Origin: a virus
Direction: 5' to 3' (one strand)
Length of the DNA: 64,000 nt
IMG/VR virus record: IMGVR_UViG_3300045988_175246
The notes under the pieces are model-generated. The model saw only the letters and a program-made list of their open reading frames with translations, had not been told where the DNA came from and searched no databases. Shown here piece after piece: positions 25,982-55,918 of the stretch. Positions within the stretch are counted from its first letter, which is position 1. Each line of letters opens with the position of its first letter. The position numbers were made by a program, and so were the translations under genes.

Positions 25982-26004
25982 TATACTGGAATCGTTCACA
26001 TAAA
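25982..26004 (+). promoter_or_regulatory. conserved promoter/leader motif copy 1
   Basis: TATACTGGAATCGTTCACATAAA; RBS+ATG 26 nt downstream. Confidence 0.5.
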
Positions 26005-26029
26005 AAAGTTGAAAAACCAAGGAGAAAAA

Positions 26030-26344
26030 ATGAATAAGCCCGCATACTTCAAGCAGTTCGGCGCAGATGACTACAACATTTTCGCAGTCAAGGACAAGTC
26101 GTATGTCATGAGTCGTTTCACAGACGACCCCGAGGGCGTCTACTACATGCTTTTCGAGCATGTCGAGGGTCAGACCGGCGTCAGCTATTACATGTTGGAC
26201 AATATTCCCGAGACTGTTTTGGACGGTGTTTCCGACGGTGGATATACCGATAGGGAGTTTGCTTCGAGGCTTGCCGGTCAGGATAGGTTTGTCCACAATA
26301 TCAATGTTCGTAGGCTTCTGCATCATTCCCACTTGGACGCCTGA
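26030..26344 (+). CDS. hypothetical protein, family F1 (paralog of 36056..36364)
   Basis: MNKPAYFKQFGADDYNIF...MLFEHVEGQTGV...VHNINVRRLL aligns with MNEYFARFGAEDYNIF...ALFEHIEGHAGV...VHSINIRRIL. Confidence 0.55.
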   Translation: MNKPAYFKQFGADDYNIFAVKDKSYVMSRFTDDPEGVYYMLFEHVEGQTGVSYYMLDNIPETVLDGVSDGGYTDREFASRLAGQDRFVHNINVRRLLHHSHLDA

Positions 26345-26446
26345 ACGATTCCGTAACAGTACTCTTCCTTCCCTTATAGGTTGGAGGGGTTTGTTTTTTC
26401 AGAGGTTGTTTATAGTTTTTTGGGTGTGTCGTTTTTTCGCACGCTG

Positions 26447-26469
26447 TATACTGGGATTGTTCACACAAA
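26447..26469 (+). promoter_or_regulatory. conserved promoter/leader motif copy 2
   Basis: TATACTGGGATTGTTCACACAAA; ATG at 26497. Confidence 0.5.
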
Positions 26470-26496
26470 AGATAAAAGAAAACCAAGGAGCAAAAA

Positions 26497-27321
26497 ATGA
26501 ACAACATCGACAGCATCATCGAACGCATCAACAACCTCATGGCAATAGCCGAAAACGAAGCATCCAGCGACAATGAGGCGCAAATGGCGTTCGAGCGGGC
26601 ACAGAAACTCATCAACGAATATCGTATCGAAGACTGGAAACGCGACCGCACCCGCACGAACAAGCCAATCATCGAACGTGGCGTGAACGTAAGCAAAACC
26701 ACCATCTACCATCAGCAAGGCTACCTTGCGACCATCATCGCCCAAGCTAACGAATGCCGCGCCTACATTCACGAAAGCCGGTGTGGCGGAAGGATTGAGG
26801 AACGTGCCGTCATGTTCGTAGGCGAGGAGGACGATGTGAACGCCGCAGTCCTTCTCTTCCAAAGCATCGACCTATACTGCTCAGTCCACGCCCGCACTAG
26901 CTACGCGGACATGATTGACCAGCACGCCAAAGCGTACTATGAGGACAACAAGGAATACGTCGAAACGCATTACGGACGTGAATCCTATCCGACGCTGACG
27001 GAATGCAAACAGTACATGCGTCGTGATTATCCACGCGCCAAGTTCTACTATGGTTATCGCGGTGGATTCAACGAACGTTTGAGCGAACGTTTCGAGGAGC
27101 TTCGCAAGCAGAGTCTCGCCATTCCTTCCGGTCGTGAGCTGGTGTCATGCAAGAGTCAGCGTCTGAACGAGTATTTTGACAAGCTTGAGCTGGTGCCGGG
27201 TCGTGCGGCCACTGCTCGTGGTAGCAAGGATGGTTTTGCTCGTGGTGTGAGTGACGCGAACAATGTGGGTTTGGGTTTGTCTGAAATGGGTGTTTCGTCC
27301 CATGCTTTGCTGAATGCCTGA
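26497..27321 (+). CDS. DUF2786-like protein
   Basis: N-terminus IIERINNLMAIAENEASSDNEAQMAFERAQKLINEYRI typical of DUF2786 plasmid/phage proteins (recalled, not searched); 274 aa. Confidence 0.45.
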   Translation: MNNIDSIIERINNLMAIAENEASSDNEAQMAFERAQKLINEYRIEDWKRDRTRTNKPIIERGVNVSKTTIYHQQGYLATIIAQANECRAYIHESRCGGRIEERAVMFVGEEDDVNAAVLLFQSIDLYCSVHARTSYADMIDQHAKAYYEDNKEYVETHYGRESYPTLTECKQYMRRDYPRAKFYYGYRGGFNERLSERFEELRKQSLAIPSGRELVSCKSQRLNEYFDKLELVPGRAATARGSKDGFARGVSDANNVGLGLSEMGVSSHALLNA

Positions 27322-27383
27322 CTTTTCAGCCCGCTTCCTTGCTTTGGGGAGTGGGCTGTTTTTGTTTTTTCCTACAAACATGG

Positions 27384-27406
27384 TATACTGGGATTGTTCA
27401 CACAAA
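27384..27406 (+). promoter_or_regulatory. conserved promoter/leader motif copy 3
   Basis: TATACTGGGATTGTTCACACAAA; preceded by hairpin CAGCCCGC...GGGCTG+T-tract; ATG at 27435. Confidence 0.5.
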
Positions 27407-27434
27407 AGATAGATTCCAACAAGGAGGAACAAAA

Positions 27435-27929
27435 ATGATTAAGACAATCACCAACCTCAAAATCACCAAACTACGCGAACTCTCCACACTGTCAGTGGAT
27501 AGTGAATATCTCACAATAGACTACTTGGACGAGGATGGCGAAGAACAGCGAATCGAAAAACTCACCCACGAGGAAGACCTTGGCGAATACAACGTCAAGA
27601 CCGACCTTTGGGAGGACATTCTCGAAGATTGGCGGCTCACCAAGCCGATTCCAGTACCCTCTGCCGAAAAAGAAGACTGGAAACTGCTGGAAGACTATGT
27701 TTGGAACCTCACCGACTCGAAGTATCAAGAACTGTCGGACAATCGCAATAAACTATACGAAGCCGACGACGTGGCGAATATCCTCCGCAGCATCAGTCGT
27801 CTCAGCGACGTAGGACGAGCCACGTTGAACAAACTGCTGGACAATGGTTCCAAGGATGTGGAGAATGAATACACGGAACAGTGGAACCGTATCGTTCCGC
27901 TCCGTCAGGCGGACGGCGAGGAAGAATAG
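27435..27929 (+). CDS. hypothetical acidic protein (164 aa)
   Basis: D/E-rich (LDEDGEEQRIEKLTHEEDLGEY...WEDILEDW...); size and charge compatible with a DNA-mimic (Ard-like) protein, unproven. Confidence 0.45.
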   Translation: MIKTITNLKITKLRELSTLSVDSEYLTIDYLDEDGEEQRIEKLTHEEDLGEYNVKTDLWEDILEDWRLTKPIPVPSAEKEDWKLLEDYVWNLTDSKYQELSDNRNKLYEADDVANILRSISRLSDVGRATLNKLLDNGSKDVENEYTEQWNRIVPLRQADGEEE

Positions 27930-27943
27930 GAGGAACGGGGAAA

Positions 27944-28321
27944 ATGAAGGCACGAGACGTTAGCTTCTTCAAGAAGAACGCTTGGAAGGGCACGTATTCC
28001 AGCATCCTCACCATTCCGGTTGAATCGTTGGCCGACAAGTGTTTCGGCGCTTGGTTGGATATAGAGGACACGAATTTTGCGGAAGCGACACTGCCGGACG
28101 AGAAGCTTGCCGGACGGTTCCGTGAGCTGGTCGATTCCGACGCCGAACAGGCGGAATGGGATGAATTCTATGCTTCCGTTGGCAAGGCTTTTTCCGCCAT
28201 GTCGGTGGATGAACTGGCGTCCAAGTTCGTTGAGCTGAACGACCCTGCGACCATCCGTCGTGTTCTTTGGGGTTACGGGAACAAATGGTATCTCGATTCC
28301 GATTGCGAGTATGAGTTCTGA
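27944..28321 (+). CDS. hypothetical protein, family F2 (paralog of frameshifted 29155..29543)
   Basis: MKARDVSFFKKNAWKGT...LADKCFGAWLDIEDTNF...DSDCEYEF; ATG 27944 inside ORF 27881..28321. Confidence 0.5.
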   Translation: MKARDVSFFKKNAWKGTYSSILTIPVESLADKCFGAWLDIEDTNFAEATLPDEKLAGRFRELVDSDAEQAEWDEFYASVGKAFSAMSVDELASKFVELNDPATIRRVLWGYGNKWYLDSDCEYEF

Positions 28322-28394
28322 CCGTCGGATTTTAGCGCCTCTCCCTTGGATGGGTGGGGCGCTTTTTGTTTGGCGTGTCGTACCCAACATGATG

Positions 28395-28417
28395 TATACT
28401 GGAATTGTTCACACAAA
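28395..28417 (+). promoter_or_regulatory. conserved promoter/leader motif copy 4
   Basis: TATACTGGAATTGTTCACACAAA; preceded by hairpin AGCGCC...GGCGCT+TTTTTG; ATG 28455. Confidence 0.5.
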
Positions 28418-28454
28418 CAAGGGTTCGTAAAACCCATCACCAAAAGGAGAAAAA

Positions 28455-28655
28455 ATGCATATCAAGGATGTTCTGCTTATGACGCTTGTCACCATCGCTT
28501 TCGGTGGGGTGGCAACCGCAGTCGCGTTCGGCATCTACTCGTTCGGCACTTGGCTGTTCACGTTTGGCCGCACGTTCGGTATCGTATCCGTGTGCGCCAT
28601 TACGGTGGTGTTGCTGACCGTCGCGGTTGAGGTTCGTTTGAGCATGAATCGTTAG
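28455..28655 (+). CDS. small membrane protein (2 TM)
   Basis: 66 aa, LLMTLVTIAFGGVATAVAFGIY and FGIVSVCAITVVLLTVAV. Confidence 0.45.
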   Translation: MHIKDVLLMTLVTIAFGGVATAVAFGIYSFGTWLFTFGRTFGIVSVCAITVVLLTVAVEVRLSMNR

Positions 28656-28735
28656 TTTTCAGGATTGTGGCCTCGTCGTTTTGGCGGGGCTTTTGTTTTT
28701 TGGCGTGTCCGTGTTGCCTGTTTTACAAAGTGCGC

Positions 28736-28758
28736 TATACTGGAATTGTTCACACAAA
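28736..28758 (+). promoter_or_regulatory. conserved promoter/leader motif copy 5
   Basis: TATACTGGAATTGTTCACACAAA; ATG 28824. Confidence 0.5.
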
Positions 28759-28823
28759 ACATTGGAACCGTATTACGTCGCATCGTTCAGACAACGGGGA
28801 AGACTGAGAAAAAAGGAGGAAGC

Positions 28824-29039
28824 ATGAATGTCAAGTTCACCGGATTCGACTACATCAGCGACAACGACGGCATGGGCATTCACGTCGTCGCGGGAGCCGA
28901 CGACATCTGGTTGCCGGTCGATGACCGTGAGCGTGTGAGGTTCGCACTCGCCGTGCTGGACGGGTTGGAACCCAAGGAACTGGATGAAGTCGCCTATCAG
29001 TTCGCCTTGGAGAGGACACGCGGACATGGTTCGCTTTGA
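28824..29039 (+). CDS. hypothetical small protein
   Basis: MNVKFTGFDYISDNDGMGIHVV...; 71 aa. Confidence 0.4.
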   Translation: MNVKFTGFDYISDNDGMGIHVVAGADDIWLPVDDRERVRFALAVLDGLEPKELDEVAYQFALERTRGHGSL

Positions 29040-29101
29040 CGCCTTAATGCATTGAAAACGCGCTTGGCTGGAAGCTGGTTTGACGTTCTTGTGCATTCAT
29101 G

Positions 29102-29124
29102 TATACTGGAATCGTTCACACAAA
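29102..29124 (+). promoter_or_regulatory. conserved promoter/leader motif copy 6
   Basis: TATACTGGAATCGTTCACACAAA; ATG 29155. Confidence 0.5.
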
Positions 29125-29154
29125 AACAGAAAGCCATTGAATAGGAGTTAGACC

Positions 29155-29543
29155 ATGGAACACAAGACCAAGGCCGTAGAAGTCAGTTTTCTAAAAACCA
29201 AAAGTGGACGGGCACCGCCACGAGAATGCTGACCTTCCCGGTCGGAGAACTGGCCGACAGGTGCTTGAATGCATGGCTCGATATCACGGATGAAGGCTTC
29301 TCCCATGCCATACTCCCATCCACGCAACTGGCGGAACGGTTCTCCACGCTCATGGAATCGGACGCCGACCAAGCCGCTTGGGACGAATTCTATAAAGCCG
29401 TGGGCGAGGAGTTCTCCCGCTTGTCGGCGGACGAGCTTGCCGCGTTTTTCATCGACCTGAACGACCCTTCGACCATAGAGGCCGTGCTGTGGAGCGACGG
29501 CGAACACGAGTTTTTGGATTCCGGTTGCGAATGCCGGTATTAA
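29155..29543 (+). pseudogene. frameshifted family-F2 paralog
   Basis: ATG 29155 frame gives MEHKTKAVEVSFLKTKSGRAPPREC-stop; frame of ORF 29226..29543 continues ...FSKNQKWTGTATRMLTFPVGELADRCLNAWLDITDEGF matching 27944..28321; shift maps to the ttttctaaaaacc run. Confidence 0.5.
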
Positions 29544-29560
29544 CGAAAGAGGACTTGACA

Positions 29561-29740
29561 ATGAGAACCAAAGCCAAGGAACTGCCAGCCATCCTCACTA
29601 TAGCTGACACGATGGCCTACCTCTCCTGCTCACGCCAGCACGTGTACGACCTGCTGAAGGCCGGTCGCATACGCACCTACAAAATCGGACGACGCCGGTA
29701 CATCGACGCCGATTCGCTCGCCCACCTGTTCTGGAGGTAA
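29561..29740 (+). CDS. excisionase/Xis-family HTH DNA-binding protein
   Basis: LPAILTIADTMAYLSCSRQHVYDLLKAGRIRTYKIGRRRYIDADSLAHL; RBS aaagagga upstream of ATG 29561. Confidence 0.55.
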   Translation: MRTKAKELPAILTIADTMAYLSCSRQHVYDLLKAGRIRTYKIGRRRYIDADSLAHLFWR

Positions 29741-29744
29741 CGCG

Positions 29745-29903
29745 ATGCCGAACGTGAACCGTGTGGTCATGTTGCCCGCCGACCTGTACCGGCTGACCAT
29801 GCAGTACGCCGACGATAACGAACTCACGTGGAACGCGGCGGTGAGAGCACTGGTCGAACGGGGGCTGAGGCAAACCGTCGAACCATGTGGGGAGCTGTCA
29901 TGA
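29745..29903 (+). CDS. small protein (52 aa), possible ribbon-helix-helix
   Basis: Own translation MPNVNRVVMLPADLYRLTMQYADDNELTWNAAVRALVERGLRQTVEPCGELS; stop overlaps next ATG (ATGA). Confidence 0.3.
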   Translation: MPNVNRVVMLPADLYRLTMQYADDNELTWNAAVRALVERGLRQTVEPCGELS

Positions 29904-30223
29904 CCGGGGACAGGCTACCCGCGTTCTTTCTCAAGGGCGTGTGGCAGGGGTTGAAAATAGCCCTCATACCGCACGCCCGTCTGCGTGACCCGTTGGGTCC
30001 CATGCCGACCGTGCGCGATTGGCTCGACATGTACGGAGGCACCCGCATGGACGCGGACATGTTCGACCGTTGCGAGAGCGAATGGTACGCACTGCTGGAG
30101 CAACGGAAACGTCGGATGAGCGCGTTCCTCGCGGGCGGATACGCGGGCACGTGGATGTATGCGATTGGGGTGCTCGTACTGTTGGGGTTGGTCGGCTGGC
30201 GGATTTGGCAGCTGATTCCCTGA
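29900..30223 (+). CDS. membrane protein (C-terminal TM)
   Basis: MTGDRLPAFFLKGVWQGL...WMYAIGVLVLLGLVGWRIWQLIP. Confidence 0.4.
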   Translation: MTGDRLPAFFLKGVWQGLKIALIPHARLRDPLGPMPTVRDWLDMYGGTRMDADMFDRCESEWYALLEQRKRRMSAFLAGGYAGTWMYAIGVLVLLGLVGWRIWQLIP

Positions 30224-30302
30224 GATTCTAAACCCGTCGGATTCGACGGGTTTAGCTTTTTGCGGCTGTGCAGTGAGGGATTTTTGCATTATCCCTCTGT
30301 GG

Positions 30303-30325
30303 TATACTGGAATCGTCCACACAAA
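30303..30325 (+). promoter_or_regulatory. conserved promoter/leader motif copy 7
   Basis: TATACTGGAATCGTCCACACAAA; ATG 30350. Confidence 0.5.
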
Positions 30326-30349
30326 AACCATTTTAAAAAGGAGAACAAC

Positions 30350-30541
30350 ATGTATATAGAACACGCCTACCAGCAGACACAGCAGGTGTGGCCGGTCGAA
30401 TACGAAGACCAGCTCACACTCTTAACTTCGCTTGAGAGCGCCGAACAGTACACCCACGAACACGGGGGAACTATCCTCGACCCCCCCCCGAAGGCTCTGA
30501 GGTCTTTCGTCAGGGCGCAGGGCTTGGTCTTCCGCTTCTAG
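30350..30541 (+). CDS. hypothetical small protein (63 aa)
   Basis: MYIEHAYQQTQQVWPVEYEDQ...; note C8 homopolymer at ~30481. Confidence 0.4.
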   Translation: MYIEHAYQQTQQVWPVEYEDQLTLLTSLESAEQYTHEHGGTILDPPPKALRSFVRAQGLVFRF

Positions 30542-30592
30542 GCGCTGGTCGGCATTTTTGTTTTTCGTATTGTGATATTTCAGACCATGTGT

Positions 30593-30615
30593 TATAGTGG
30601 TCATGTCCACACAAA
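30593..30615 (+). promoter_or_regulatory. conserved promoter/leader motif copy 8 (variant TATAGTGGTCATGTCCACACAAA)
   Basis: ATG 30651. Confidence 0.45.
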
Positions 30616-30650
30616 AAGGGTTCGGCCTCACAACAACAAAAGGAGAAAAC

Positions 30651-30947
30651 ATGAACACCATCCAGCCAATCGCATTCGACAACGGCACCATCAGCATCGT
30701 CGCAAGCGACAACACCTACGACCACACCTACGCAGACAAGCCCATGAACGAAGCCATCGTGGAAACCTCCCACAGCAAGCCCAACCCAACCAACTGGAAG
30801 CACGTCGTATCCAACTGCGACGAACGCTGGAACCTCATCAAAGGCGACGCATGCTTGGCAGTCCTGAGCGGCAACTGGGACGTTTTCGAGAACCGCCACG
30901 AAAACAGAATCATGCTCGTCACCCGCAAGGGAACCCGAATCCTCTGA
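30651..30947 (+). CDS. hypothetical protein (98 aa)
   Basis: MNTIQPIAFDNGTISIVASDNTYDH... Confidence 0.45.
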   Translation: MNTIQPIAFDNGTISIVASDNTYDHTYADKPMNEAIVETSHSKPNPTNWKHVVSNCDERWNLIKGDACLAVLSGNWDVFENRHENRIMLVTRKGTRIL

Positions 30948-31032
30948 CCCATGCTAAAAGCCTCGGGGAGAAGCGTCATCCAGACCGCTTCTCCCCTCTC
31001 TCATATCCGACAAAAAAGAAAGGAAGCCTTGC

Positions 31033-31755
31033 ATGAAAGAACGGGATATCTCGCTGGAAAACGACCTCATGATGTTAGGTCAGGAACCGATGGACGAACC
31101 CGACTCGTCCACCACCATCGAACTGCAAAGAGTAGTCAAAGAGACGGAACGGAAAATGTTGAAACCACCGGCACCGCCCATGGAAGCCGAAAAGAAGAAC
31201 GTTCCTAAGCCCGTCGAACCGAAGAACGACCCTACAGTCAAGACGAAACCTAAAGCAAAGACCGAAACCGTGTCCACGAAAGAACCGAAGACCTACAGGC
31301 CGACCATCTCACGCAAACAGTCAAAACCCGTCAAAATCGCTCCGACCCTCACCAATCCCTATGCTCCCGTCGAATACGATTGCAACGGCAATTGGCGCCA
31401 GCTCGTGGCCGGAATCGCCATCATCGGCGTTCTCGTGGCGGTAATCGCCCTACTGGTAGGGGCCAAAACATATTGGCGGTTCATCACCGTAGGAGTATTA
31501 GCCGCTTTCGCCATGCTCCCACTTTACGGTTGGTTTGATGAACTCGAACGGGATATGGCCGTCAAAGCCGTGGAAAAGGATTACAGGATTCGTATTCTGC
31601 AAGCGAACGGTGGCGGTGGACTGGTGGAAGTTTATTACACGTTCCAGCAGAATCCGACCGTCAAAGCTGGTGTTGTTTCCTATGGTCACGGCTTGGCATG
31701 GTTGCGGAACGCGGACGGTAAGAAGATTGTCGGACGCGGCAAACCGTTGGACTGA
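31033..31755 (+). CDS. membrane protein with K/P/E-rich N-terminal region and two TM helices
   Basis: 240 aa; QLVAGIAIIGVLVAVIALLVGA and FITVGVLAAFAMLPLYGWF. Confidence 0.5.
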   Translation: MKERDISLENDLMMLGQEPMDEPDSSTTIELQRVVKETERKMLKPPAPPMEAEKKNVPKPVEPKNDPTVKTKPKAKTETVSTKEPKTYRPTISRKQSKPVKIAPTLTNPYAPVEYDCNGNWRQLVAGIAIIGVLVAVIALLVGAKTYWRFITVGVLAAFAMLPLYGWFDELERDMAVKAVEKDYRIRILQANGGGGLVEVYYTFQQNPTVKAGVVSYGHGLAWLRNADGKKIVGRGKPLD

Positions 31756-31799
31756 TTGAGTTAATCTGGAAGCAATCACACCCACTACGGTAAGGAGCA

Positions 31800-33480
31800 T
31801 TTGACGTGCTGAACAACGGAATCTGCGCAATCTGCAAAAAGAACAAGTGGACTATCCTCTGCCCCGAATGCTCCCGACCGTTATGTTCCGACTGTTTGAC
31901 GTCCTCCCGGTGTTGAAACACCGGGATTCCAACACTTATCGTGTTGAGGTTTTGCACGTCATGGTGGAAGCGTTCTTCCCGCGATAAGCGGGTTGGACGG
32001 CTGATTCCGTTTCGGCGTGCTCGGCTTCGTCCAAGCCGATAAGATGGTCCAATCCCCGTTTGAGGATGTTGTTGGCCGCGTTCAAGTCGGCGTTCATGCT
32101 CATGTGGCATTGCTTGCATTCGAAGTCCGCTTGGCTTTCACGGTTTCGACTGTCGCAATAACCGCATTCACTGCATGTCTGGCTTGTGTACGCGGGGTTG
32201 ACGAGTATGAGACGGTTTCGTCCGGTCAACTGTGTTTTGTATTCGAGTTTGCCGACGATTCCGCCAAGGCTTGCCGCACGTAGACCACGGTTGAGTCCAC
32301 GTTTTGCCGACTGGCTGTTATGCAGGTACGCGCCCGGCCTTTCCGGGTCTGGTTTGGCTTTCGCCTTGCGGCTCATGTCTTGCAGGTTGAGGTTTTCCAA
32401 TACGATGAGGTCGTATTGTTTGACGAGACTGGTGGTGGTCTTGTGTTGCCAATCGTCTATGATTCGGTGGGCTTTCGCGTACAGTCGGCCGATTTCCCTG
32501 CCGGTGCGCTCATAGGTGCGGCTTGCATGCTGACGGTATTGTTTTAATGTTTTGCCGGACATGCTCACGCGTCTCGCCTGTGCTTTCTGACGGCGGCGTA
32601 TCTCCCTGTCGATACGGTTCAACCGTTCCTTGGGAAGGTCGATGAAAGTGTTGTCGGACGTGGCGAGCGTGTGGACGCAACCCCTGTCCAAGCCGACCAT
32701 GGCTCCCGTGCGCTCACGGCCTATCGGCAGCGGGTCGTTGACGAACACGAGCGTGCGTCGTGTCCAGTTCACCCCGATGCTCGTATAGTCGCGTATGGAC
32801 TGGCTGACCCGGACACGGATATGGATGCTGTAACGGCATGATTGCCCGTCCAGACGATATGCGCCCGGATTCTGTCCGGTGATGACGACCTCGCCGTGAT
32901 TCCGGTTCAACTGCCGGTAGTTCGCGTTCGCGCCCTTATTGTGCCAGCAGACGAAATACAGGTCGTCATGACGTGATTTGAACCGTGGCATCATGCCCGG
33001 ATTCCTATGCTTTTTCTTCAACGTCCTACGACGCTTGTTCGCACTCCACCAGTCCGTGTTCTCTATCCTGTTCGGGGATTGCAACACCATGGAGGGGATG
33101 GCCGCAAGCCAAGAGCATTCCAATCTAACCTGACGGTCGGAACGCATGTCCGGCCTCCCGTTCAACGGGACGGCCGTCTGGGATTCCCTGTCCCACTTGG
33201 TGCGACGGGAGCGCAGCTGATTGTACCTGCAACGCCATCCGTCGCACAGCCAGCGCATCACGATGTCCGGGTTGGTCGAATACAAGGGGGCCTGCTGCCC
33301 GTCTGGGGTCGCACTCATGCCGAGATATGGTGCGGCACCCCGCACCTGCACTCGTTCTATCACGACCTTCTGGGACATGATTCCGATTATATCACTACGC
33401 GCGTATAATGAAAGAAAACTTAGACCGAAAGGAGGGGGCGGTTCCTCCCGGCATTGAAATACCGGGCATCCCCGCCCGGA
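31800..33480 (-). mobile_element. IS200/IS605-family tnpB-only (IS1341-like) insertion within the gene array
   Basis: TnpB ORF with no tnpA; hairpin-rich sequence at 33420-33480 (CCCGG-cattgaaata-CCGGG and flanking GC dyads) resembling IS605 end structures; interrupts the otherwise regular cassette array. Confidence 0.5.
31936..33378 (-). CDS. tnpB: TnpB (IS605 OrfB family RNA-guided endonuclease-like transposase accessory protein)
   Basis: RuvC-like motifs and zinc finger: LVNPAYTSQTCSECGYC...FECKQCHMSMNADLNAANNILKRG; 480 aa. Confidence 0.85.
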   Translation of the reverse strand: MSQKVVIERVQVRGAAPYLGMSATPDGQQAPLYSTNPDIVMRWLCDGWRCRYNQLRSRRTKWDRESQTAVPLNGRPDMRSDRQVRLECSWLAAIPSMVLQSPNRIENTDWWSANKRRRTLKKKHRNPGMMPRFKSRHDDLYFVCWHNKGANANYRQLNRNHGEVVITGQNPGAYRLDGQSCRYSIHIRVRVSQSIRDYTSIGVNWTRRTLVFVNDPLPIGRERTGAMVGLDRGCVHTLATSDNTFIDLPKERLNRIDREIRRRQKAQARRVSMSGKTLKQYRQHASRTYERTGREIGRLYAKAHRIIDDWQHKTTTSLVKQYDLIVLENLNLQDMSRKAKAKPDPERPGAYLHNSQSAKRGLNRGLRAASLGGIVGKLEYKTQLTGRNRLILVNPAYTSQTCSECGYCDSRNRESQADFECKQCHMSMNADLNAANNILKRGLDHLIGLDEAEHAETESAVQPAYRGKNASTMTCKTSTR

Positions 33481-33712
33481 AACTGGTGAGGATAGGTGAG
33501 CCGTTAACCTTTTAGATAGGAGTGAGAAATGGAAGAGGTCGGTAGGGAAAATGATTTTCGCGTATCGGCTTGGGGATGGGGTTTGCTGGTCGGATTGTCC
33601 CTTATGGTTCTGGCATATCTGTCTATTATTGCATTGATGAGCTTGCTGGTTTTTTGTGTGATTGGGTAGTTTGTTTTGACGTGCCGACTTGCGTAATTGC
33701 TATTCTTGAATA

Positions 33713-33735
33713 TATACTGGGATTGTTCACACAAA
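33713..33735 (+). promoter_or_regulatory. conserved promoter/leader motif copy 9
   Basis: TATACTGGGATTGTTCACACAAA; ATG 33762. Confidence 0.5.
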
Positions 33736-33761
33736 AACTTGGTCTACAAAAGGAGCAACCC

Positions 33762-34139: not shown

Positions 34140-34150
34140 AAGGACAAAAA

Positions 34151-34564: not shown

Positions 34565-34644
34565 TTGGGTTTGCGGGGATTATTGGTCTTGTTGCTGTAG
34601 TTCCCGCTTTTTTGTTTTGTGGCGTGTTTTGTCCAAGCAAATTG

Positions 34645-34667
34645 TATACTGGAATTGTTCACACAAA
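34645..34667 (+). promoter_or_regulatory. conserved promoter/leader motif copy 10
   Basis: TATACTGGAATTGTTCACACAAA; preceded by hairpin GCGGGGA...TCCCGC+TTTTTTG; ATG 34691. Confidence 0.5.
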
Positions 34668-34690
34668 AATATGGAAGCCAAGGAACAAAA

Positions 34691-35611: not shown

Positions 35612-35622
35612 AAGGGGCAGCA

Positions 35623-35919: not shown

Positions 35920-36013
35920 CTAATAGTGGTAAAAATTTCCGAGTCGTGTGAATGCTTTTTGTATTTGCACGGCTTTTTGTTTTTTGCGCTTTTGCGCTTT
36001 CTCTTAAATATGA

Positions 36014-36036
36014 TATACTGGAATTGTTCACACAAA
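36014..36036 (+). promoter_or_regulatory. conserved promoter/leader motif copy 11
   Basis: TATACTGGAATTGTTCACACAAA; ATG 36056. Confidence 0.5.
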
Positions 36037-36055
36037 TATGAGAGAAAGAGCCACA

Positions 36056-36474: not shown

Positions 36475-36497
36475 TATACTGGAATTGTTCACACAAG
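36475..36497 (+). promoter_or_regulatory. conserved promoter/leader motif copy 12
   Basis: TATACTGGAATTGTTCACACAAG; preceded by imperfect hairpin GGGATGCGCCC...GGGCACATCCC+TTTTTCG; ATG 36519. Confidence 0.5.
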
Positions 36498-36518
36498 ATA
36501 TGCTGAGAAGGAGAAACC

Positions 36519-37484: not shown

Positions 37485-37566
37485 GGTTTGACGGAGGAGA
37501 AGCGGGACGCTGTTTTTGGTGTCCTGCTTCTTGTTTTTGGGGTTTTGCGGTTTCTCTCAAGTGTGC

Positions 37567-37589
37567 TATAGTGGAATTGTTCACACAAA
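37567..37589 (+). promoter_or_regulatory. conserved promoter/leader motif copy 13 (TATAGTGGAATTGTTCACACAAA)
   Basis: ATG 37618. Confidence 0.5.
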
Positions 37590-37617
37590 GAGCGATAGGC
37601 AAAAAGGAGCACATAAC

Positions 37618-38740: not shown

Positions 38741-38763
38741 TATACTGGAATTGTTCACACAGC
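38741..38763 (+). promoter_or_regulatory. conserved promoter/leader motif copy 14
   Basis: TATACTGGAATTGTTCACACAGC; ATG 38792. Confidence 0.5.
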
Positions 38764-40657: not shown

Positions 40658-40680
40658 TATAGTGGGATTGTTCACAACAA
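40658..40680 (+). promoter_or_regulatory. conserved promoter/leader motif copy 16 (TATAGTGGGATTGTTCACAACAA)
   Basis: gene start 40714 (TTG). Confidence 0.45.
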
Positions 40681-41786: not shown

Positions 41787-41809
41787 TATACTAGAAACGT
41801 CCACACATT
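41787..41809 (+). promoter_or_regulatory. conserved promoter/leader motif copy 17 (TATACTAGAAACGTCCACACATT)
   Basis: ATG 41833. Confidence 0.45.
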
Positions 41810-43419: not shown

Positions 43420-43442
43420 TATACTGGAACAGTGGGCACAAT
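43420..43442 (+). promoter_or_regulatory. conserved promoter motif copy 18 (TATACTGGAAC...) followed by a perfect hairpin in the leader
   Basis: TATACTGG then CAGTGGGCAC-aatact-GTGCCCACTG + TTTTCTT at 43429-43465, before RBS aggagga and ATG 43482. Confidence 0.45.
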
Positions 43443-47065: not shown

Positions 47066-47088
47066 TATACTGGGGATGTTTGCAAATG
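47066..47088 (+). promoter_or_regulatory. conserved promoter/leader motif copy 20 (TATACTGGGGATGTTTGCAAATG)
   Basis: preceded by hairpin GGGTCTG...CAGACCC; first gene 47093. Confidence 0.4.
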
Positions 47089-48907: not shown

Positions 48908-48930
48908 TATACTGGGATTATCTACATAGA
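48908..48930 (+). promoter_or_regulatory. conserved promoter/leader motif copy 21 (TATACTGGGATTATCTACATAGA)
   Basis: preceded by hairpin AGGAGCG...CGCTCCT; gene start TTG 48943. Confidence 0.4.
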
Positions 48931-49360: not shown

Positions 49361-49383
49361 TATACTGGAATCAACCACATTCA
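49361..49383 (+). promoter_or_regulatory. conserved promoter/leader motif copy 22 (TATACTGGAATCAACCACATTCA)
   Basis: ATG 49404. Confidence 0.45.
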
Positions 49384-50598: not shown

Positions 50599-50621
50599 TA
50601 TACTGGAAACGTTCACATACA
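50599..50621 (+). promoter_or_regulatory. conserved promoter/leader motif copy 23 (TATACTGGAAACGTTCACATACA)
   Basis: gene start TTG 50644. Confidence 0.45.
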
Positions 50622-51876: not shown

Positions 51877-51899
51877 TATATTGGAATTGTCCACATATG
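51877..51899 (+). promoter_or_regulatory. conserved promoter/leader motif copy 24 (TATATTGGAATTGTCCACATATG)
   Basis: ATG 51913. Confidence 0.45.
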
Positions 51900-52482: not shown

Positions 52483-52505
52483 TATACTGGAAGTAGTCAC
52501 ATAAG
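52483..52505 (+). promoter_or_regulatory. conserved promoter/leader motif copy 25 (TATACTGGAAGTAGTCACATAAG)
   Basis: ATG 52521. Confidence 0.45.
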
Positions 52506-53370: not shown

Positions 53371-53444
53371 TTTTTCCCAAAACAGCAAGAATAGAACCTC
53401 CCTTTCGCGTAAGGTTGTTTACAGCGAAAAGGAGGTTTTCTTCT

Positions 53445-54239
53445 ATGGCATATAATCCGTCAGAACCGCGCGACCCGCTGGGCAAGTGGATGAAAGCGCA
53501 TGGCGGCAATCCGAAGGCGAGTCTTGCCGATAATGTCAAAAGTCTCAACTATGCGGAAGAGCATGGGGCGGCTGTCGATACCAAAAACACGCCGACAGCG
53601 GTAATTGACCAGATAGCCAAGACCGGCAAAGACGAGGACAACCGGCTGGAGGCGCTGATGAACCCGAACATCGGCGACGAGACACTTGACTCGTTCAAGT
53701 ACAGCGACGATGTGAGGGAGCGCACGGCAGTCGCGTCCAATCCGAAACTGGATGGCAAGACGCTCGACATGATGGCGGACGATGACAACTTCTATGTGAA
53801 ACGTGCCGTGGACCTCAACCGCAACACCCCGACCAACACTCTGGAACGGCTCGAAGGCGATGCCGACAAGGACATTGCCGACTACGCTCTCATGGCATGG
53901 TGTCGGAACCGTTCGCTGGAATACTGCAAGGAAGGCGATTACGGTAATCCCAGCGTCCTGCTCGGGCAGAACAGATACCATCAAACACTGAGGCTCGAAG
54001 AGCTTATGGACTACGACGATGTGAGAGACCCCATGCCGCTACCGGGGCAGGACGGTTACAACGACTATATCGAGACCAACGAGAAACTGCATGTCTGCGA
54101 CATATACACGTCGGAGATAGCCACGGAGGCGGCTAGGAACGGCGACTACGACGCAGCCTTGCAAATCTTCGAGGCCGGTCACAGCGAATGGACGGACGAC
54201 AGGGCGGGAACCACCTTCCCCTTAGCAAAGGCAGGATGA
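53445..54239 (+). CDS. LRV/HEAT-like repeat protein, family F4
   Basis: N-terminus MAYNPSEPRDPLGKWMKAHGGNPKAS shared with 54685..55866; repeats of type D..VR..VA.NP.L....L..L (e.g. SDDVRERTAVASNPKLDGKTLDMMADDDNFYVKRAVDLNRNTPTNTLERL). Confidence 0.55.
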   Translation: MAYNPSEPRDPLGKWMKAHGGNPKASLADNVKSLNYAEEHGAAVDTKNTPTAVIDQIAKTGKDEDNRLEALMNPNIGDETLDSFKYSDDVRERTAVASNPKLDGKTLDMMADDDNFYVKRAVDLNRNTPTNTLERLEGDADKDIADYALMAWCRNRSLEYCKEGDYGNPSVLLGQNRYHQTLRLEELMDYDDVRDPMPLPGQDGYNDYIETNEKLHVCDIYTSEIATEAARNGDYDAALQIFEAGHSEWTDDRAGTTFPLAKAG

Positions 54240-54667
54240 AATGCCCCGCCATGGCTATCGACGCGGAGACGAAATTGGCTGACCAGTTCCTCTACCACGC
54301 CTCGTCCGAGCAGTGCGAAAAACTCCATGAGCTAGGCTACGATTCGTCGGCGCAGGGCATACTGAACCGTTTCGACATGACCAACACCATCAGCACCCGC
54401 CCCATGGCGGAACACTGCACGGTGCCGGACAGGCTCGACAGGCTCTCCCAGTCGAAGGACTCAGAGACGAGACTTCATGTGGCGGGCAATCCGAACACCA
54501 GCCTTCACACGTTGGAGACGCTAAGCGAAGACAAGGACGAGAAAGTCAGCCGTAGGGCCGTCATGAATCTTGAACATCGCCGTGAGAATCAAAGACTCTC
54601 GGACGAATACGCGGGAGTCGATTTCAACGACGATAGCGGATACGACGATATCCAATTCGAATACTAA
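54236..54667 (+). CDS. LRV/HEAT-like repeat protein, family F4
   Basis: SETRLHVAGNPNTSLHTLETLSEDKDEKVSRRAVMNLE repeat units; ATG 54236 overlaps upstream stop. Confidence 0.45.
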   Translation: MKCPAMAIDAETKLADQFLYHASSEQCEKLHELGYDSSAQGILNRFDMTNTISTRPMAEHCTVPDRLDRLSQSKDSETRLHVAGNPNTSLHTLETLSEDKDEKVSRRAVMNLEHRRENQRLSDEYAGVDFNDDSGYDDIQFEY

Positions 54668-54684
54668 AAGAAAGTGGAGGAGGA

Positions 54685-55866
54685 ATGTACAATCCTTTAC
54701 AAGCAAGAGACCCGCTAGGCAAATGGGTCAAGGAGCATGGCGGCGCTTCGATTGAGGACGTAGTCTCCAAGACCAGCATGGTCGATTTGGAGAACATGGC
54801 CTTGGATGATAGGACGCCTACCGCCGTGTTGAACAATCTCGCCACGACCGAATACGGGTTCAACCATCCGTTCGATGAGGACAAGACTTATCCGAATGCG
54901 AACGGCGAACCACCGAAGGACGCGAGGGAGAACCGGTACAATTACGAGCAACAGTTGGTCAGATATGACGCCAAGGTTCGTTGCACGGCAATCGAACGTG
55001 GCGCTGATGATACCGCGTTGAGCGTATGCCGGTTCGACTACAATCCCCAAATCCGTAATGCGGTAGCACGCAACACAGATGACGCCCGCACATTGGATGT
55101 GCTCTCGTCCGACGAGTCTTGGAAGGTTCGTGGTGCCGTGGCTGGCAATCCACATACTCCGAAGAACGCTACGGAACGACTGTTGAACGATGATGAGGCC
55201 ATCGTCCGTGCGGAAGCGTTGAAACGTTCGGATTTGAGTTCCGAACAGATTCGGAAAGCCGTGGATGATAGTTTGGAACCGGCCCTTCATGGTGATGGTG
55301 CCGTGACCGATGATATGACGAAAATAACCCGTGCCGCGTCCGACAATTGGCAGGCCGACGCCGATACTCTTCACGAATGCCTTCGTGTGGACGATTATGA
55401 GACTCAACGAAACGTCGCGGAGCATGAGCATACGTCTCAGGAGGATTTGCACCGGCTGGCTTCCAGCGAGGATAACGCTGTCCGCGAGCAGGTGGCGTTC
55501 AACCCCCATGCGTCATCGGCTACGTTGAGCTTTTTGGCCTACGACGATTGGGCTCAGACCCGCGTCAACGTGGCGGGCAATCCCAACACGACTCCCGATA
55601 CGTTGGAGTACATGTCGAACCAGTGGAGTCCGCATGTGAAGCGTGCTATCGCCGTGAACTCAAACGCCTCCGTGGATACGTTGAGAAAGCTGTCCCACGA
55701 TTCAGATAAGACCGTGAGACGATTGGCTTATTCCGGACTGAAGCAAAAAGGTGAGAAACCCATCGACAAGCCATTTAAACCAGCCAAGCCGGTCGAAGAC
55801 GACAATCCCGGAAAATACATGAGCGCCGACTTCAACCCCGTGGAGTTCTTCGGTTTGGATGACTGA
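54685..55866 (+). CDS. LRV/HEAT-like repeat protein, family F4 (393 aa)
   Basis: N-terminus MYNPLQARDPLGKWVKEHGG; many repeats (ESWKVRGAVAGNPHTPKNATERLLNDDEAIVRAEAL; DNAVREQVAFNPHASSATLSFLAYDDWAQTRVNVAGNPNTTPDTLEYM; SPHVKRAIAVNSNASVDTLRKLSHDSDKTVRRLAYS). Confidence 0.55.
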   Translation: MYNPLQARDPLGKWVKEHGGASIEDVVSKTSMVDLENMALDDRTPTAVLNNLATTEYGFNHPFDEDKTYPNANGEPPKDARENRYNYEQQLVRYDAKVRCTAIERGADDTALSVCRFDYNPQIRNAVARNTDDARTLDVLSSDESWKVRGAVAGNPHTPKNATERLLNDDEAIVRAEALKRSDLSSEQIRKAVDDSLEPALHGDGAVTDDMTKITRAASDNWQADADTLHECLRVDDYETQRNVAEHEHTSQEDLHRLASSEDNAVREQVAFNPHASSATLSFLAYDDWAQTRVNVAGNPNTTPDTLEYMSNQWSPHVKRAIAVNSNASVDTLRKLSHDSDKTVRRLAYSGLKQKGEKPIDKPFKPAKPVEDDNPGKYMSADFNPVEFFGLDD

Positions 55867-55877
55867 AATCACGTTCT

Positions 55878-55918
55878 AAAAATCCCTCCTCAAACATCCA
55901 TTCCAGAGGAGGGATTTT
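55878..55918 (+). terminator. strong rho-independent terminator closing the gene array
   Basis: AAATCCCTCCT-caaacatccattccag-AGGAGGGATTT + TTCCGTTTTT. Confidence 0.6.

Follow-up and report, generated by a model that had tools for sequence, protein, structure and literature searches.

The window analysed here (the whole 64,000-nt stretch) belongs to a ~220 kb conjugative megaplasmid of the pMP7017 family in Bifidobacterium adolescentis, and it carries about 27 copies of one short motif. The best explanation overall, which we hold at a little under even confidence, is a promoter module specific to pMP7017-type bifidobacterial conjugative megaplasmids, with a likely DnaA box in its second half and a role in recombination. 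The resemblance of the second half to a DnaA box, and the behavior of motif copies as recombination joints, both appear to be new.

A Bifidobacterium conjugative element was originally proposed as the carrier, and this assignment holds. The VirB4-like protein has 66% identity to its pMP7017 counterpart; the window also encodes DnaB, a Gram-positive pilin and a CHAP hydrolase, and the members of its DnaB cluster are named B. adolescentis. In human gut metagenomes the pMP7017-family megaplasmid of this species is frequent. No oriT or relaxase was located. In a motif scan of 185,579 species genomes, matches clustered in contigs of B. callitrichidarum alone and were otherwise chance-level singletons, so this is not a generic host promoter.

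Scoring TATACTGGAATTGTYCACAYAAA at 17/23 or better (background scores tail off at 15-16) finds 25 sites, 23 on the plus strand (25982-52505) and two on the minus strand (5190-5212 and 63486-63508); four weaker copies lie at 39913, 47066, 5286 and 9619. At three or fewer mismatches the 23-mer has 13 matches in the window, against none in 100 shuffles. The repetition reported in the original prediction is thus real, far beyond chance and correctly placed, but the second minus-strand copy had been overlooked. Conservation runs, much as had been described, from ~3 nt upstream of TATACT to ~17 nt downstream; there is no fixed −35. Nearly every copy is intergenic, oriented like the next gene, and followed 12-65 nt downstream by a Shine-Dalgarno sequence and start codon. 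A hairpin and T-tract precede at least 11 copies, which bears out the proposed terminator-promoter-leader-gene units; these cassettes hold one to four genes, nearly each headed by a direct-orientation motif of 23-26 bp, usually after a terminator. The strong terminator said to close the array ahead of the T4SS ATPase is also there. The recurring block TTTTGGCGTGT is present, but in only ~8 copies and at variable spacing. We rejected the motif as an RNA element: the leaders form little structure and leave the conserved 11 nt unpaired, and there is no Rfam hit.

The proposed cargo calls mostly stand, with precomputed Pfam hits for an RNase_T exonuclease, an RNA ligase, GNAT and DUF3310, but the ATP-grasp call (R2K_3) is a faint hit only; most cargo proteins have no family hits, and the suggested leading-region or anti-defence role is conjectural. 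Paralogous cargo proteins share 31-52% identity, and in the one pair directly compared (motifs at 25982 and 36014) the motifs differ at 2 of 23 positions.

Table. Motif copies, terminators and associated features of the window.
Feature	Position	Strand	Remark
Motif copy TATACTGGAATCGTTCACATAAA	25982..26004	+	First of array; gene start 26030
Motif copy	26447..26469	+	Heads DUF2786/DUF7168 gene 26497-27321; pMP7017 orthologue likewise has motif
Motif copy	27384..27406	+	Left partner, 7.2 kb deletion junction in L154
Motif copy	28395..28417	+	Exact consensus
Motif copy	28736..28758	+	Exact consensus; left partner, 366-nt deletion junction (4 loci)
Motif copy	29102..29124	+	Right partner, 366-nt deletion junction
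Motif copy	30303..30325	+	GTCCACA variant
Motif copy TATAGTGGTCATGTCCACACAAA	30593..30615	+	
Motif copy	33713..33735	+	
Motif copy	34645..34667	+	Exact consensus; right partner, 7.2 kb deletion junction; homology blocks recurrently start here
Motif copy	36014..36036	+	Exact consensus; left partner, 461-nt deletion junction (L154, L156)
Motif copy	36475..36497	+	Right partner, 461-nt deletion junction
Motif copy	37567..37589	+	−10 is TATAGT
Motif copy	38741..38763	+	
Weak copy TAGAGTGAGATAGCCCACACCAA	39913..39935	+	16/23
Motif copy	40658..40680	+	
Motif copy	41787..41809	+	Heads RNase_T 3'-5' exonuclease 41833-42417; pMP7017 orthologue likewise has motif
Aberrant copy	43420..43442	+	Good −10; perfect hairpin and T-tract (43426-43459) replace downstream half
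Motif copy TATACTGGGGGTGTTCACATAAA	43766..43788	+	
Weak copy	47066..47088	+	15/23; intact −10, degenerate box
Motif copy	48908..48930	+	Box TTATCTACA; homology blocks of L030 and L034 start here
Motif copy	49361..49383	+	18/23
Motif copy	50599..50621	+	Heads DUF3310 gene
Motif copy	51877..51899	+	Perfect TTGTCCACA box
Motif copy	52483..52505	+	19/23; last of array
Motif copy	5190..5212	-	Half of divergent promoter pair, conserved in pMP7017 (56070-/56120+)
Weak copy TAAGCTGACCTCGCCCACACAAA	5286..5308	+	Second half of divergent pair
Weak copy CATAGTGGGTACGCCCACAAAAA	9619..9641	+	Directly downstream of dnaB
Motif copy	63486..63508	-	Perfect TTGTCCACA box; missing from original list
Hairpin, then T-tract	25924..25952	+	Upstream of first copy; read from sequence, not in terminator scan output
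Terminator, 13-bp stem	27327..27358	+	Before copy 27384; terminator scan
Hairpin, then T-tract	28334..28363	+	Before copy 28395; read from sequence, not in terminator scan output
Terminator	28669..28691	+	Before copy 28736; terminator scan
Terminator	30228..30255	+	Before copy 30303; terminator scan
Hairpin, then T-tract	34573..34607	+	Before copy 34645; read from sequence, not in terminator scan output
Terminator	35941..35975	+	Before copy 36014; terminator scan
Terminator, 16-bp stem	37497..37532	+	Before copy 37567; terminator scan
Hairpin, ~12 pairs, 14-nt loop, then T-tracts	55878..55919	+	Array end, before VirB4-like gene at 56012
IS605-family TnpB insertion	31936..33378	-	Breaks up array
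Orc/STAND-like AAA+ ATPase, C-terminal winged helix	24588..25745	-	Divergent from first motif copy; candidate plasmid-encoded binder, not supported

The original prediction could assign this repeated promoter and leader to no feature class it could name, but the class is already published for pMP7017. In 19 pMP7017 promoters, Dineen et al. (2024; PMC10832533) found a 34-bp motif that overlaps the −10; they interpreted it as the probable site of a transcription factor, restricted to these plasmids, and presumed that the 19 promoters, with 56 genes, form a plasmid-specific regulon. The window motif is homologous, a denser variant of pMP7017's. Our search of pMP7017 found 26 copies on both strands over the whole 190 kb, among them copies at ssb, at cas genes, at a WhiB gene and at a pair of divergent promoters in the backbone; about one quarter of the pMP7017 coding capacity is predicted to be expressed from the homologous motif. 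This spread, together with the window copies at 5.2 and 63.5 kb, argues against the suggestion that the motif marks an accessory or anti-defence island. Between orthologous promoters, 15-19 of the 23 motif bases are retained, with flanks at 22-35% identity and downstream proteins at only 30-56%. All that four plasmid lineages have in common is TATACTG-N3-NYGTYCACA. T and C account for nearly all bases at position 12 (two of the 26 pMP7017 copies carry A); 13 is G, 14 is T, and 16-19 are a nearly invariant CACA; positions 8-11, 15 and 20 vary and the flanks are randomised, with GT.CACA fixed at a constant distance from the −10. The proposed TTGT-N4-ACAA dyad operator is not conserved in the related plasmids, where the conserved core is instead the asymmetric 9-mer.

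Comparison of natural variants shows, from their junctions, that motif copies are points of cassette deletion and exchange between plasmids. Homology breakpoints fall within 5 nt of a copy in 12 of 43 cases against 1.3 expected, about ninefold (maximum of 7 in 10,000 randomisations), although breakpoints there are to some extent predictable, since unrelated cassettes have nothing but the motif in common. The variants are set apart by loss of cassettes, which leaves chimeric junctions built from two motif copies; three junctions were resolved base by base, each a chimera of two window copies (27384|34645, 36014|36475 and 28736|29102), and the crossover intervals of the events lie at motif positions 10-24, 1-22 and 1-11. 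Such differing intervals are expected under homology-driven exchange. One apparent motif-flanked indel, at window 43766 relative to L152, was not a clean motif-motif junction. Among 553 motif instances from 139 sequences, 113 upstream contexts are joined to 90 downstream contexts in 157 combinations. The array behaves like the promoter/stem-loop (PeSL) modules in hyperplastic regions of T4-type phages.

The proposal of a −10 promoter fused to a conserved downstream element is well founded. The first half would be a host sigma-A promoter of the actinobacterial extended −10 type, often TGn and then TATACT-G, and its geometry alone predicts a transcription start ~7 nt downstream, at G13 of the 23-mer. 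The second half is a likely DnaA box: NYGTYCACA begins exactly four bases past the hexamer, across the predicted +1, and matches the actinobacterial box TTGTCCACA, a high-affinity DnaA box in M. tuberculosis and S. coelicolor (PMC4285127) that is found with TTATTCACA among the box types of B. longum oriC (PMC2430713). The main form in the window, TTGTTCACA, departs from the consensus at position 5; some copies have TTGTCCACA. Among the 27 copies tabulated for box mismatches (23 strong and two weak on the plus strand, two on the minus strand), two are perfect, 13 have one mismatch and seven have two, and several copies have three to five. The most variable box positions are 1, 2 and 5; position 1 is free, and position 5 is the N of the classical TTATNCACA consensus. 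TT[AG]TNCACA occurs 14 times in the window against 3.5 expected, nearly always as a motif copy. By a rough estimate, a short asymmetric 7-9-mer would match a DnaA box by chance at ~2e-3 (GTYCACA core, either orientation, any offset). A conserved host protein, most probably DnaA, may bind the 9-bp element and would gate all these otherwise strong promoters together; a DnaA-gated regulon is our leading hypothesis, put forward tentatively from sequence comparison. Any repression would be partial, because six motif promoters rank with the most strongly expressed genes of pMP7017 during log phase (PMC10832533). The text and supplement available to us do not mention dnaA among host genes whose expression differs in carriers of pMP7017, which lends no support to strong DnaA titration.

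The same promoter module could instead carry in its downstream half the operator of a dedicated plasmid-encoded global repressor or activator, resembling KorA/KorB of IncP plasmids, with the DnaA-box likeness a coincidence or mimicry. We think this possible but rather unlikely. It agrees with the published interpretation ('likely transcription factor binding site'; PMC10832533), with the confinement of the motif to these plasmids, and with the lineage differences at positions 20-23, which are expected of an operator co-evolving with its binder. Candidates exist, including ImmA-like/HTH modules on pMP7017 and on the B. thermophilum-type element L164, and the AAA+ winged-helix protein, divergent from a motif copy in the window and pMP7017 alike, yet none is supported. 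Structurally, the AAA+ protein matches archaeal STAND-type ATPases and NLRs best, its DnaA match is limited to the ATPase region with no DnaA-type DNA-binding domain found, and distant homologues sit in chromosomes that lack the motif. The HTH_17 gene suggested earlier as regulator (29561-29740) belongs to a cassette missing from several natural variants. Moreover, the site lacks the symmetry of most repressor operators, and the GTYCACA core is constant across lineages whose backbone proteins are 30-66% identical, a better fit to a highly conserved host binder.

We regard it as improbable that no trans factor acts and that the module is an optimised expression cassette (strong extended −10, favourable start and initial transcribed sequence, unstructured CA/A-rich leader) whose uniformity is maintained by gene conversion among copies and by selection for high expression. 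Phage T5 early promoters likewise share conserved transcribed-region sequence. Unstructured leaders, a conserved stretch that in pMP7017 continues through the Shine-Dalgarno sequence, and the rank of motif promoters among that plasmid's most highly transcribed genes (PMC10832533) favour such a cassette, and concerted evolution fits the homogeneity within a plasmid, the differences between lineages and the demonstrated recombination between copies. The position-specific conservation of GT.CACA is, however, tighter than known initial-transcribed-sequence effects require, and the conserved bases match a site to which a protein is known to bind. That the copies are site-specific recombination sites (compare integron attC/attI) or ends or remnants of insertion elements is largely refuted. 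Indel junctions do fall inside the 23-26 bp core, and several IS605/TnpB insertions occur in arrays of different variants, but these lie at varied positions off the motif, which lacks an extended dyad, target-site duplications and terminal inverted repeats. Crossover intervals are not constant between events, and nearly every copy is co-oriented just upstream of a gene; the cassettes each own a promoter, unlike integron cassettes. No integrase family was found among the called genes of related loci covering ~18.8-64 kb of the window, nor among the large ORFs scanned at 1-18.8 kb. Equally far-fetched is a promoter for a plasmid-encoded sigma factor or RNA polymerase, on the model of 23-bp T7 promoters or T4 MotA-type sigma appropriation. 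The conserved length (~23-34 bp) would suit it, as would the B. callitrichidarum box GGCGTGTC, which lies at the −35 location a fixed 17 nt upstream, but that box is lineage-specific (the window and pMP7017 lack it or have it at variable spacing) and TGnTATACTG is a textbook sigma-A extended −10. No such factor or polymerase is annotated in pMP7017 or found among the window ORFs scanned, and the pMP7017 motif promoters are active in a transconjugant under ordinary growth (PMC10832533).

We accordingly return to the family-specific module with its likely DnaA box. If DnaA does gate these promoters, at least 23 transcription units in the window would be coupled to the state of the host's replication initiator.

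A search of the window with the 23-mer TATACTGGAATTGTTCACACAAA found 13 matches at three mismatches or fewer, all on the plus strand (25982-38763), against 0 in 100 dinucleotide-preserving shuffles. When every window position is scored against TATACTGGAATTGTYCACAYAAA, the background ends at 15-16 of 23 and a distinct population of 25 sites stands at 17-23, so that the repetition reported in the original prediction is real. The plus-strand array that it described is confirmed, with 23 strong copies, as is its minus-strand copy, but a second minus-strand copy, at 63508, had been overlooked. Copies are named here by their coordinate in the window; 23 of them fall within 27 kb, at a median spacing of about 1 kb. 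In the aligned copies conservation runs from about 3 nt 5' of the TATACT hexamer to about 17 nt 3' of it, and upstream there is a weak T-rich stretch. A fixed −35 is absent from the aligned window copies; a consensus promoter scan finds a −35 of 4/6 or better at five copies only (29102, 28736, 30593, 43766 and 52483). Almost all copies are intergenic and point the same way as the following gene, the start codon of which, with its Shine-Dalgarno sequence, comes 12-65 nt on in nearly all cases, and at least 11 have a hairpin and T-tract terminator immediately 5'. The picture of a promoter with a shared downstream element, set in terminator-promoter-gene units, therefore stands, as does the strong terminator said to end the array before the VirB4-like ATPase.

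Coordinates of motif copies, the closing terminator, motif-to-motif junctions and related features (window coordinates unless another locus is named; L-numbers are related loci fetched for comparison)
Feature	Position	Strand	Remark
Strong copies (n=23)	25982...52483	+	at least 17/23 against TATACTGGAATTGTYCACAYAAA
Strong copies	5212 and 63508	-	at least 17/23 against TATACTGGAATTGTYCACAYAAA
Weaker copies	39913, 47066, 5286, 9619		pattern kept in part
Hairpin of ~12 pairs, then T-tracts	55878-55919		closes array ahead of VirB4-like gene
Junction in L154	left flank copy 27384, right flank copy 34645		7.2 kb, ~15 genes lost
Junction in L154 and L156	left flank copy 36014, right flank copy 36475		461 nt lost
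Junction in L160 and three further loci	left flank copy 28736, right flank copy 29102		366 nt lost
TnpB in variants	L154 16784-18363; L156 2517-3641; L157 1946-2770; L032 7700-9148; L034 4024-5700		
B. callitrichidarum loci with GGCGTGTC	L003, L008-L010, L013, L017, L020, L021, L025		

One copy, at 43420-43459, keeps its −10 but has in place of the downstream half a perfect 15-pair hairpin and then a T-run, so that the predicted transcript would open with a structure like a terminator or attenuator. At 5190-5308, upstream of the dnaB operon, two motif promoters diverge, strong on the minus strand and weak on the plus strand; the Bifidobacterium breve megaplasmid pMP7017 keeps this divergent pair (56070-/56120+).

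The large genes of the window encode a DnaB replicative helicase, a VirB4-like AAA_10 ATPase, a glucosaminidase/CHAP cell-wall hydrolase, a Gram-positive pilin, an RCC1/SdrD-repeat adhesin and a reverse transcriptase. The VirB4-like ATPase is 66% identical to that of pMP7017 and 63% to those of B. longum megaplasmids; the exonuclease and the DUF2786 protein are 56% and 30% identical to their pMP7017 orthologues. In the assembly collection 164 indexed blocks contain an identical VirB4 protein, and many of the carrier contigs are 205-225 kb long. The DnaB protein falls in a 90% cluster whose members bear the name B. adolescentis, one of them on a 221,143-bp contig of GCA_040917845.1. From the gene set, the VirB4 identity, the contig sizes and the DnaB cluster names we conclude that the window comes from a pMP7017-family megaplasmid (about 220 kb) that has B. 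adolescentis as its host and is common in human gut samples; the Bifidobacterium plasmid suspected at the outset is thus the carrier. A phage early region was rejected, with 0 nucleotide matches in 50,697 phage records and genes of the Gram-positive conjugative plasmid type. The sole nucleotide match to plasmids is an IS605-family TnpB element (31936-33378, minus strand), 82-90% identical to B. longum plasmid copies; in other plasmid variants IS605-family TnpB elements are inserted elsewhere in the cassette array (table).

A homologous element has been published. Dineen et al. (2024; PMC10832533) reported from the pMP7017 transcriptome a 34-bp promoter motif and presumed regulon, AWAYATGY-TATACT-GAATATGTCCACATAAAAWA, which overlaps the −10, lies within about 60 bp 5' of the start codon in the orientation of the gene, and was proposed to be a transcription-factor binding site. 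They reported 13 further copies in pMP7017, predicted the motif promoters to drive 56 genes (about 24% of coding capacity), and found the motif in related plasmids but not in bifidobacterial chromosomes (PMC10832533). The motif-driven genes in their Table S1 include a DNA methylase (p0197), cas genes and a WhiB-family gene (PMC10832533). Our own scan of the whole of pMP7017 gives 26 copies at 17/23 or better, on both strands and always co-oriented with the next gene; they head ssb, DUF2786, exonuclease, the cas operon, a WhiB-containing operon and the divergent backbone pair. The genes so driven are a mix of establishment-type and backbone functions, and the motif is not confined to an accessory island, as the original prediction had it.

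The core TATACTG-N5-GTYCACAYAAA is common to the window motif and the published one, which share the TATACT −10, the following G, the spacing and the GTCCACA core; both are plasmid-specific, co-oriented, 60 nt or less 5' of start codons, and head some 20-26 units on homologous backbones. Three orthologous loci (DUF2786, exonuclease and the divergent backbone pair) carry the motif in both. The two differ in host and in relatedness, the VirB4 identity of 66% lying under the 70% cut-off of Dineen et al. (PMC10832533), and the spacer and tail of their consensuses differ (GGAATTGTTCACACAAA in the window, GAATATGTCCACATAAA in pMP7017), the window motif keeping the spacer and upstream AWAYATGY only partly. 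The window is also much denser in copies, and most of its units have their own terminator. The window element is therefore a new lineage-specific member of the published family; it is no new class, whereas the original prediction had found no name for it. A refutation test set by that prediction, that the motif might be a generic host promoter, was run by scanning TATACTGNNNNNGTYCACAYAAA for exact matches through one genome per species (185,579 species): clustered matches occur only in three B. callitrichidarum contigs, and the 16 singletons elsewhere are about chance expectation, so that the motif is no generic host promoter. One pMP7017 copy, at 120545 (+), faces a stretch of about 5 kb without listed protein genes, and the pMP7017 papers place tRNA genes on the plasmid (PMC10832533 among them), which suggests that the module may also drive RNA genes.

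Four lineages could be compared: the window (26 copies), pMP7017 (26), B. callitrichidarum (22) and a B. thermophilum-type element (7) found via a homologue of the AAA+ gene that neighbours the array. All share TATACT, G, three free bases and then N-Y-G-T-Y-C-A-C-A. In 23-mer numbering, position 12 is almost always T or C (A in 2 of the 26 pMP7017 copies), 13 is G, 14 is T, 15 is C or T and 16-19 are a nearly invariant CACA; positions 8-11 and 20-23 vary by lineage. Comparison of orthologous genes in pMP7017 and the window shows 15-19 of the 23 motif bases retained, where the 60-nt flanks are 22-35% identical, that is, random, and the downstream proteins 30-56%. Inside the window, four paralogous cargo pairs are 31-52% identical; in one of them (26030/36056) the heading motifs (25982 and 36014) differ at 2 of 23 positions. 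Because the motif is kept amid random flanks and diverged proteins, within plasmids and between them, these alignments argue that it is under long-term, position-specific constraint and is more than the trace of a recent duplication.

Other proposed elements do not share this constancy. The TTGT-N4-ACAA dyad, once read as a common operator, is not conserved in pMP7017 or the other lineages. Nor is a fixed −35 or upstream box a universal part of the motif: B. callitrichidarum has a second box, GGCGTGTC, fixed 17 nt 5' of TATACT, where a −35 would lie, and preceded by a T-run, and this fixed spacing is found there only; about 8 window copies have the box, at 15-44 nt, and pMP7017 is mostly without it.

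We aligned to the window 16 related loci retrieved via identical proteins. Homology blocks begin at the exact first base of copies 25982, 26447, 29102, 34645, 36475 and 48907, and stop either at a copy or at the start codon that follows it. Among 43 distinct internal breakpoints (25.9-53 kb), 12 lie within 5 nt of a copy against 1.3 expected (at most 7 in 10,000 randomisations) and 19 within 30 nt against 3.3 expected; such alignments are bound to break at the motif, since it is the only sequence that unrelated cassettes have in common. Three junctions written out base by base are chimeras of two motif copies. The crossovers lie inside 23-26 nt of shared sequence, and as the interval varies between events, homology-driven exchange between direct repeats fits better than a single fixed cut site. 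A further candidate, 43766 compared with L152, is not a clean motif-motif deletion, its right end lying outside a motif copy. Across 553 motif instances in the window and 138 loci, 113 upstream and 90 downstream contexts occur in 157 combinations, and 35 of the 90 downstream contexts are joined to two or more upstream contexts (counts from k-mer clusters, hence approximate).

The closest described analogue of this module is the PeSL (promoter-early stem-loop) of T4-type phage hyperplastic regions, a terminator/early-promoter repeat that shuffles small ORFan genes (Arbiol et al. 2010, PMC2839356; Comeau et al. 2014, PMC4122927). Both are composites of a terminator and a strong sigma-70-type promoter, placed as direct repeats between small, mostly ORFan genes, and in both the indels and replacements among close relatives end in the repeats. 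The window copies all have a near-consensus −10. Ours is an analogue and not a member: it belongs to a Gram-positive actinobacterial conjugative plasmid instead of a phage, has no sequence relation to PeSL, and conserves a −10 and downstream box where PeSL conserves a promoter and stem-loop. This comparison of natural variants gives good support to a PeSL-like part played by the copies in cassette turnover. An integron cassette array was rejected, each cassette having its own promoter and the repeat lacking an extended dyad; in the related loci, which span about 18.8-64 kb of the window, the called genes include no integrase family.

The first half of the motif reads as a standard actinobacterial sigma-A extended −10. 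A TG often stands one base 5' of the hexamer, TGY is nearly universal in pMP7017, and the G(G) 3' of the hexamer also fits the Corynebacterium-type −10 consensus TAnaaTgg. Sigma-70-type promoters usually start 6-9 nt 3' of the hexamer, which predicts +1 at about G13 of the 23-mer. The downstream half contains a 9-mer box (positions 11-19), of which the main window form is TTGTTCACA; copies 51877 and 63508, and several from B. callitrichidarum, have TTGTCCACA, and pMP7017 has ATGTCCACA. TTGTCCACA is the high-affinity DnaA box of Mycobacterium tuberculosis and Streptomyces coelicolor (PMC4285127, Table 1), and the DnaA-box types annotated in the B. longum oriC include TTGTCCACA and TTATTCACA (PMC2430713, additional file 4 legend). 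Against the DnaA consensus (TTGTCCACA/TTATNCACA), the 27 tabulated window copies (23 strong and two weak on the plus strand, two on the minus strand) comprise 2 perfect boxes, 13 with one mismatch and 7 with two; a lone mismatch usually affects box position 5, which is N in the classical TTATNCACA. The pattern TT[AG]TNCACA occurs 14 times in the window, nearly always in motif copies, where 3.5 are expected (60 Markov sequences gave 10 at most); outside the motif, looser box-like 9-mers in the window are no more frequent than chance.

On this likeness between box and consensus we offer, as a tentative hypothesis that falls somewhat short of an even chance, that the downstream half is a DnaA box; the dominant TTGTTCACA form may be a weak one. 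DnaA-controlled promoters are familiar from dnaA autoregulation, the B. subtilis DnaA regulon and DnaA acting downstream of lambda pR. The window resembles these in its asymmetric 9-mer matching TTGTCCACA/TTATNCACA and in the overlap of the putative box with the start region, a place at which any bound protein would have to act on RNA polymerase; it differs in that many copies are one or two mismatches off consensus. We know of no plasmid with some 25 promoters, each with one DnaA box at a fixed distance from the −10, and a literature search found no precedent on conjugative plasmids for promoters under DnaA-box control. The core is the same in lineages with proteins only 30-66% identical, so that a host reader, itself highly conserved, is a more economical assumption than a plasmid regulator that diverges along with its plasmid; the candidate host readers would be RNA polymerase for the first half and DnaA for the second. 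In the available text and supplement of the transcriptome study dnaA is not named among the host genes changed in pMP7017 carriers, and no DnaA-titration signature was found in the host transcriptome, a text search being weak evidence (PMC10832533).

A regulator encoded by the plasmid itself, reading the downstream half, strikes us as somewhat less likely than DnaA. Conjugative plasmids have global repressor regulons, KorA/KorB of IncP RK2 and the ArdK/StbA/KorA network of IncW R388, whose coordinated control lets expression surge when the plasmid enters a new cell. Like these, the window has one short repeated site at many plasmid promoters, overlapping core promoter elements; Kor-type operators, however, are palindromes bound by identified plasmid proteins, whereas the window site is asymmetric and the candidates examined are without support. 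The stoperators of cluster A mycobacteriophages, asymmetric sites of about 13 bp repeated 20-30 times in one orientation relative to transcription, are a second parallel from an actinobacterial mobile element, but they have no fused −10 and block elongation when bound by the phage repressor. Within the 64-kb window we found no supported regulator candidate. The gene at 24588-25745, for a 385-aa AAA+ protein, runs divergently from the first motif copy, and pMP7017 likewise has an ATP-binding gene at 173878 on the opposite strand beside copy 173725; we take the pMP7017 gene to be p0202, an AAA ATPase annotated as DnaA/Orc-like in the supplement of PMC10832533. The 385-aa protein gives a confident model (30-sequence alignment, pLDDT 82.7) with a C-terminal winged helix. 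As a DnaA-like binder this Orc/STAND-like protein was rejected, its profile match to DnaA being weak and confined to the Walker A region, and its distant chromosomal homologues have no motif nearby; as a motif binder of any kind it is a possible but unsupported candidate. The HTH_17 protein (29561-29740), put forward in the original prediction, belongs to a dispensable cassette missing from several variants and does not qualify as global regulator, and for the small proteins encoded near the divergent promoter pair and ahead of dnaB no convincing DNA-binding family was found. Between these divergent promoters and dnaB lies a 587-aa protein (6115-7878, plus strand) with no Pfam match, the C-terminal part of which contains 'LLDGQHRLL', in a sequence reading reminiscent of ParB/DGQHR-type domains. 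Improbable in our estimate is that the motif is an optimised expression module requiring no factor. A structured leader was rejected, since conserved RNA structure is absent, folding is weak and the conserved 11 nt are predicted unpaired; as, moreover, 0 Rfam families match the leaders or motif, we argue that the motif acts at the DNA level. Six motif promoters of pMP7017 have high steady-state expression (PMC10832533), so that any repression is incomplete.

The DnaA-box hypothesis and the cassette exchange can be joined in a reading that we regard as possible but doubtful: a working DnaA box would put DnaA, the replication initiator of the host, on the start sites of about 25-30 promoters of a megaplasmid family that is widespread in gut Bifidobacterium, and the module would also be a portable recombination joint. 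DnaA at these sites would set the output of the 25-30 plasmid promoters together, keyed to DnaA status, and every copy of the plasmid would bring the cell a datA-like load of extra DnaA boxes. As a joint, the module would have assembled a population-wide pool of about 90 alternative cassettes.

Most cargo products have no Pfam match and belong to no family. The recognisable ones are DUF2786/DUF7168, a GNAT acetyltransferase, an RNA ligase, DUF3310, the HTH_17 protein, two LRV-repeat paralogues and an RNase_T-type 3'-5' exonuclease that is also matched by a CRISPR-associated DEDDh model; the nucleic-acid enzymes first listed thus hold up except the ATP-grasp protein, whose R2K_3 match is faint. 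Coordinated control of establishment genes by the motif is plausible; the leading-region reading of the original prediction is a conjecture, no oriT or relaxase having been located. The LRV-repeat gene at 53445-54667, a 32%-identical paralogue of 54685-55866, is split in the window (53445-54239 and 54236-54667) and in one relative (L033), and is a single 407-aa ORF in most relatives (L029-L032); the split is probably a frameshift.

Several neighbours of the array resemble defence or surface genes. A 318-aa AAA ATPase (2491-3447, minus strand) has a PADLOC match (E = 2.7e-62) to IetA, from the Iet anti-phage system; the neighbouring 254-aa product (1088-1852, minus strand) has no match, and the IetS protease partner expected of IetA was not found there. 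The reverse transcriptase (21312-22541, plus strand) matches RVT_1 and, in PADLOC, the generic RT and several DRT classes, and Rfam shows no group II intron RNA with it; together with two downstream genes of unknown function, 22866-23495 and 23473-24480, it may form a retron/DRT-type defence module just before the array. A Gram-positive pilus/adhesin cluster (11234-20344) contains a SpaA/pilin-backbone protein, a DUF6273 protein and a 1796-aa RCC1- and SdrD-repeat surface protein, with an SPFH/Band 7 protein (9849-11054) ahead of it.

The DnaA-box identity and the PeSL-like cassette role go beyond the literature that we found: no link between DnaA and the motif appears in the available text of the two pMP7017 papers (PMC10832533 among them), and we found no statement on recombination at the motif in that of PMC10832533. 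The megaplasmid is abundant in human gut metagenomes, and its host genus supplies probiotics. Should one module control a quarter of the megaplasmid genes, that module would offer a handle on plasmid establishment and host cost, and a ready-made strong promoter part for Bifidobacterium genetics. Cassette exchange at the copies accounts for the differing accessory content of otherwise near-identical plasmids and, by analogy, would carry the PeSL idea over from phages to plasmids. If DnaA is the reader, a mobile element would here tie its gene expression to the host cell cycle in a new manner.
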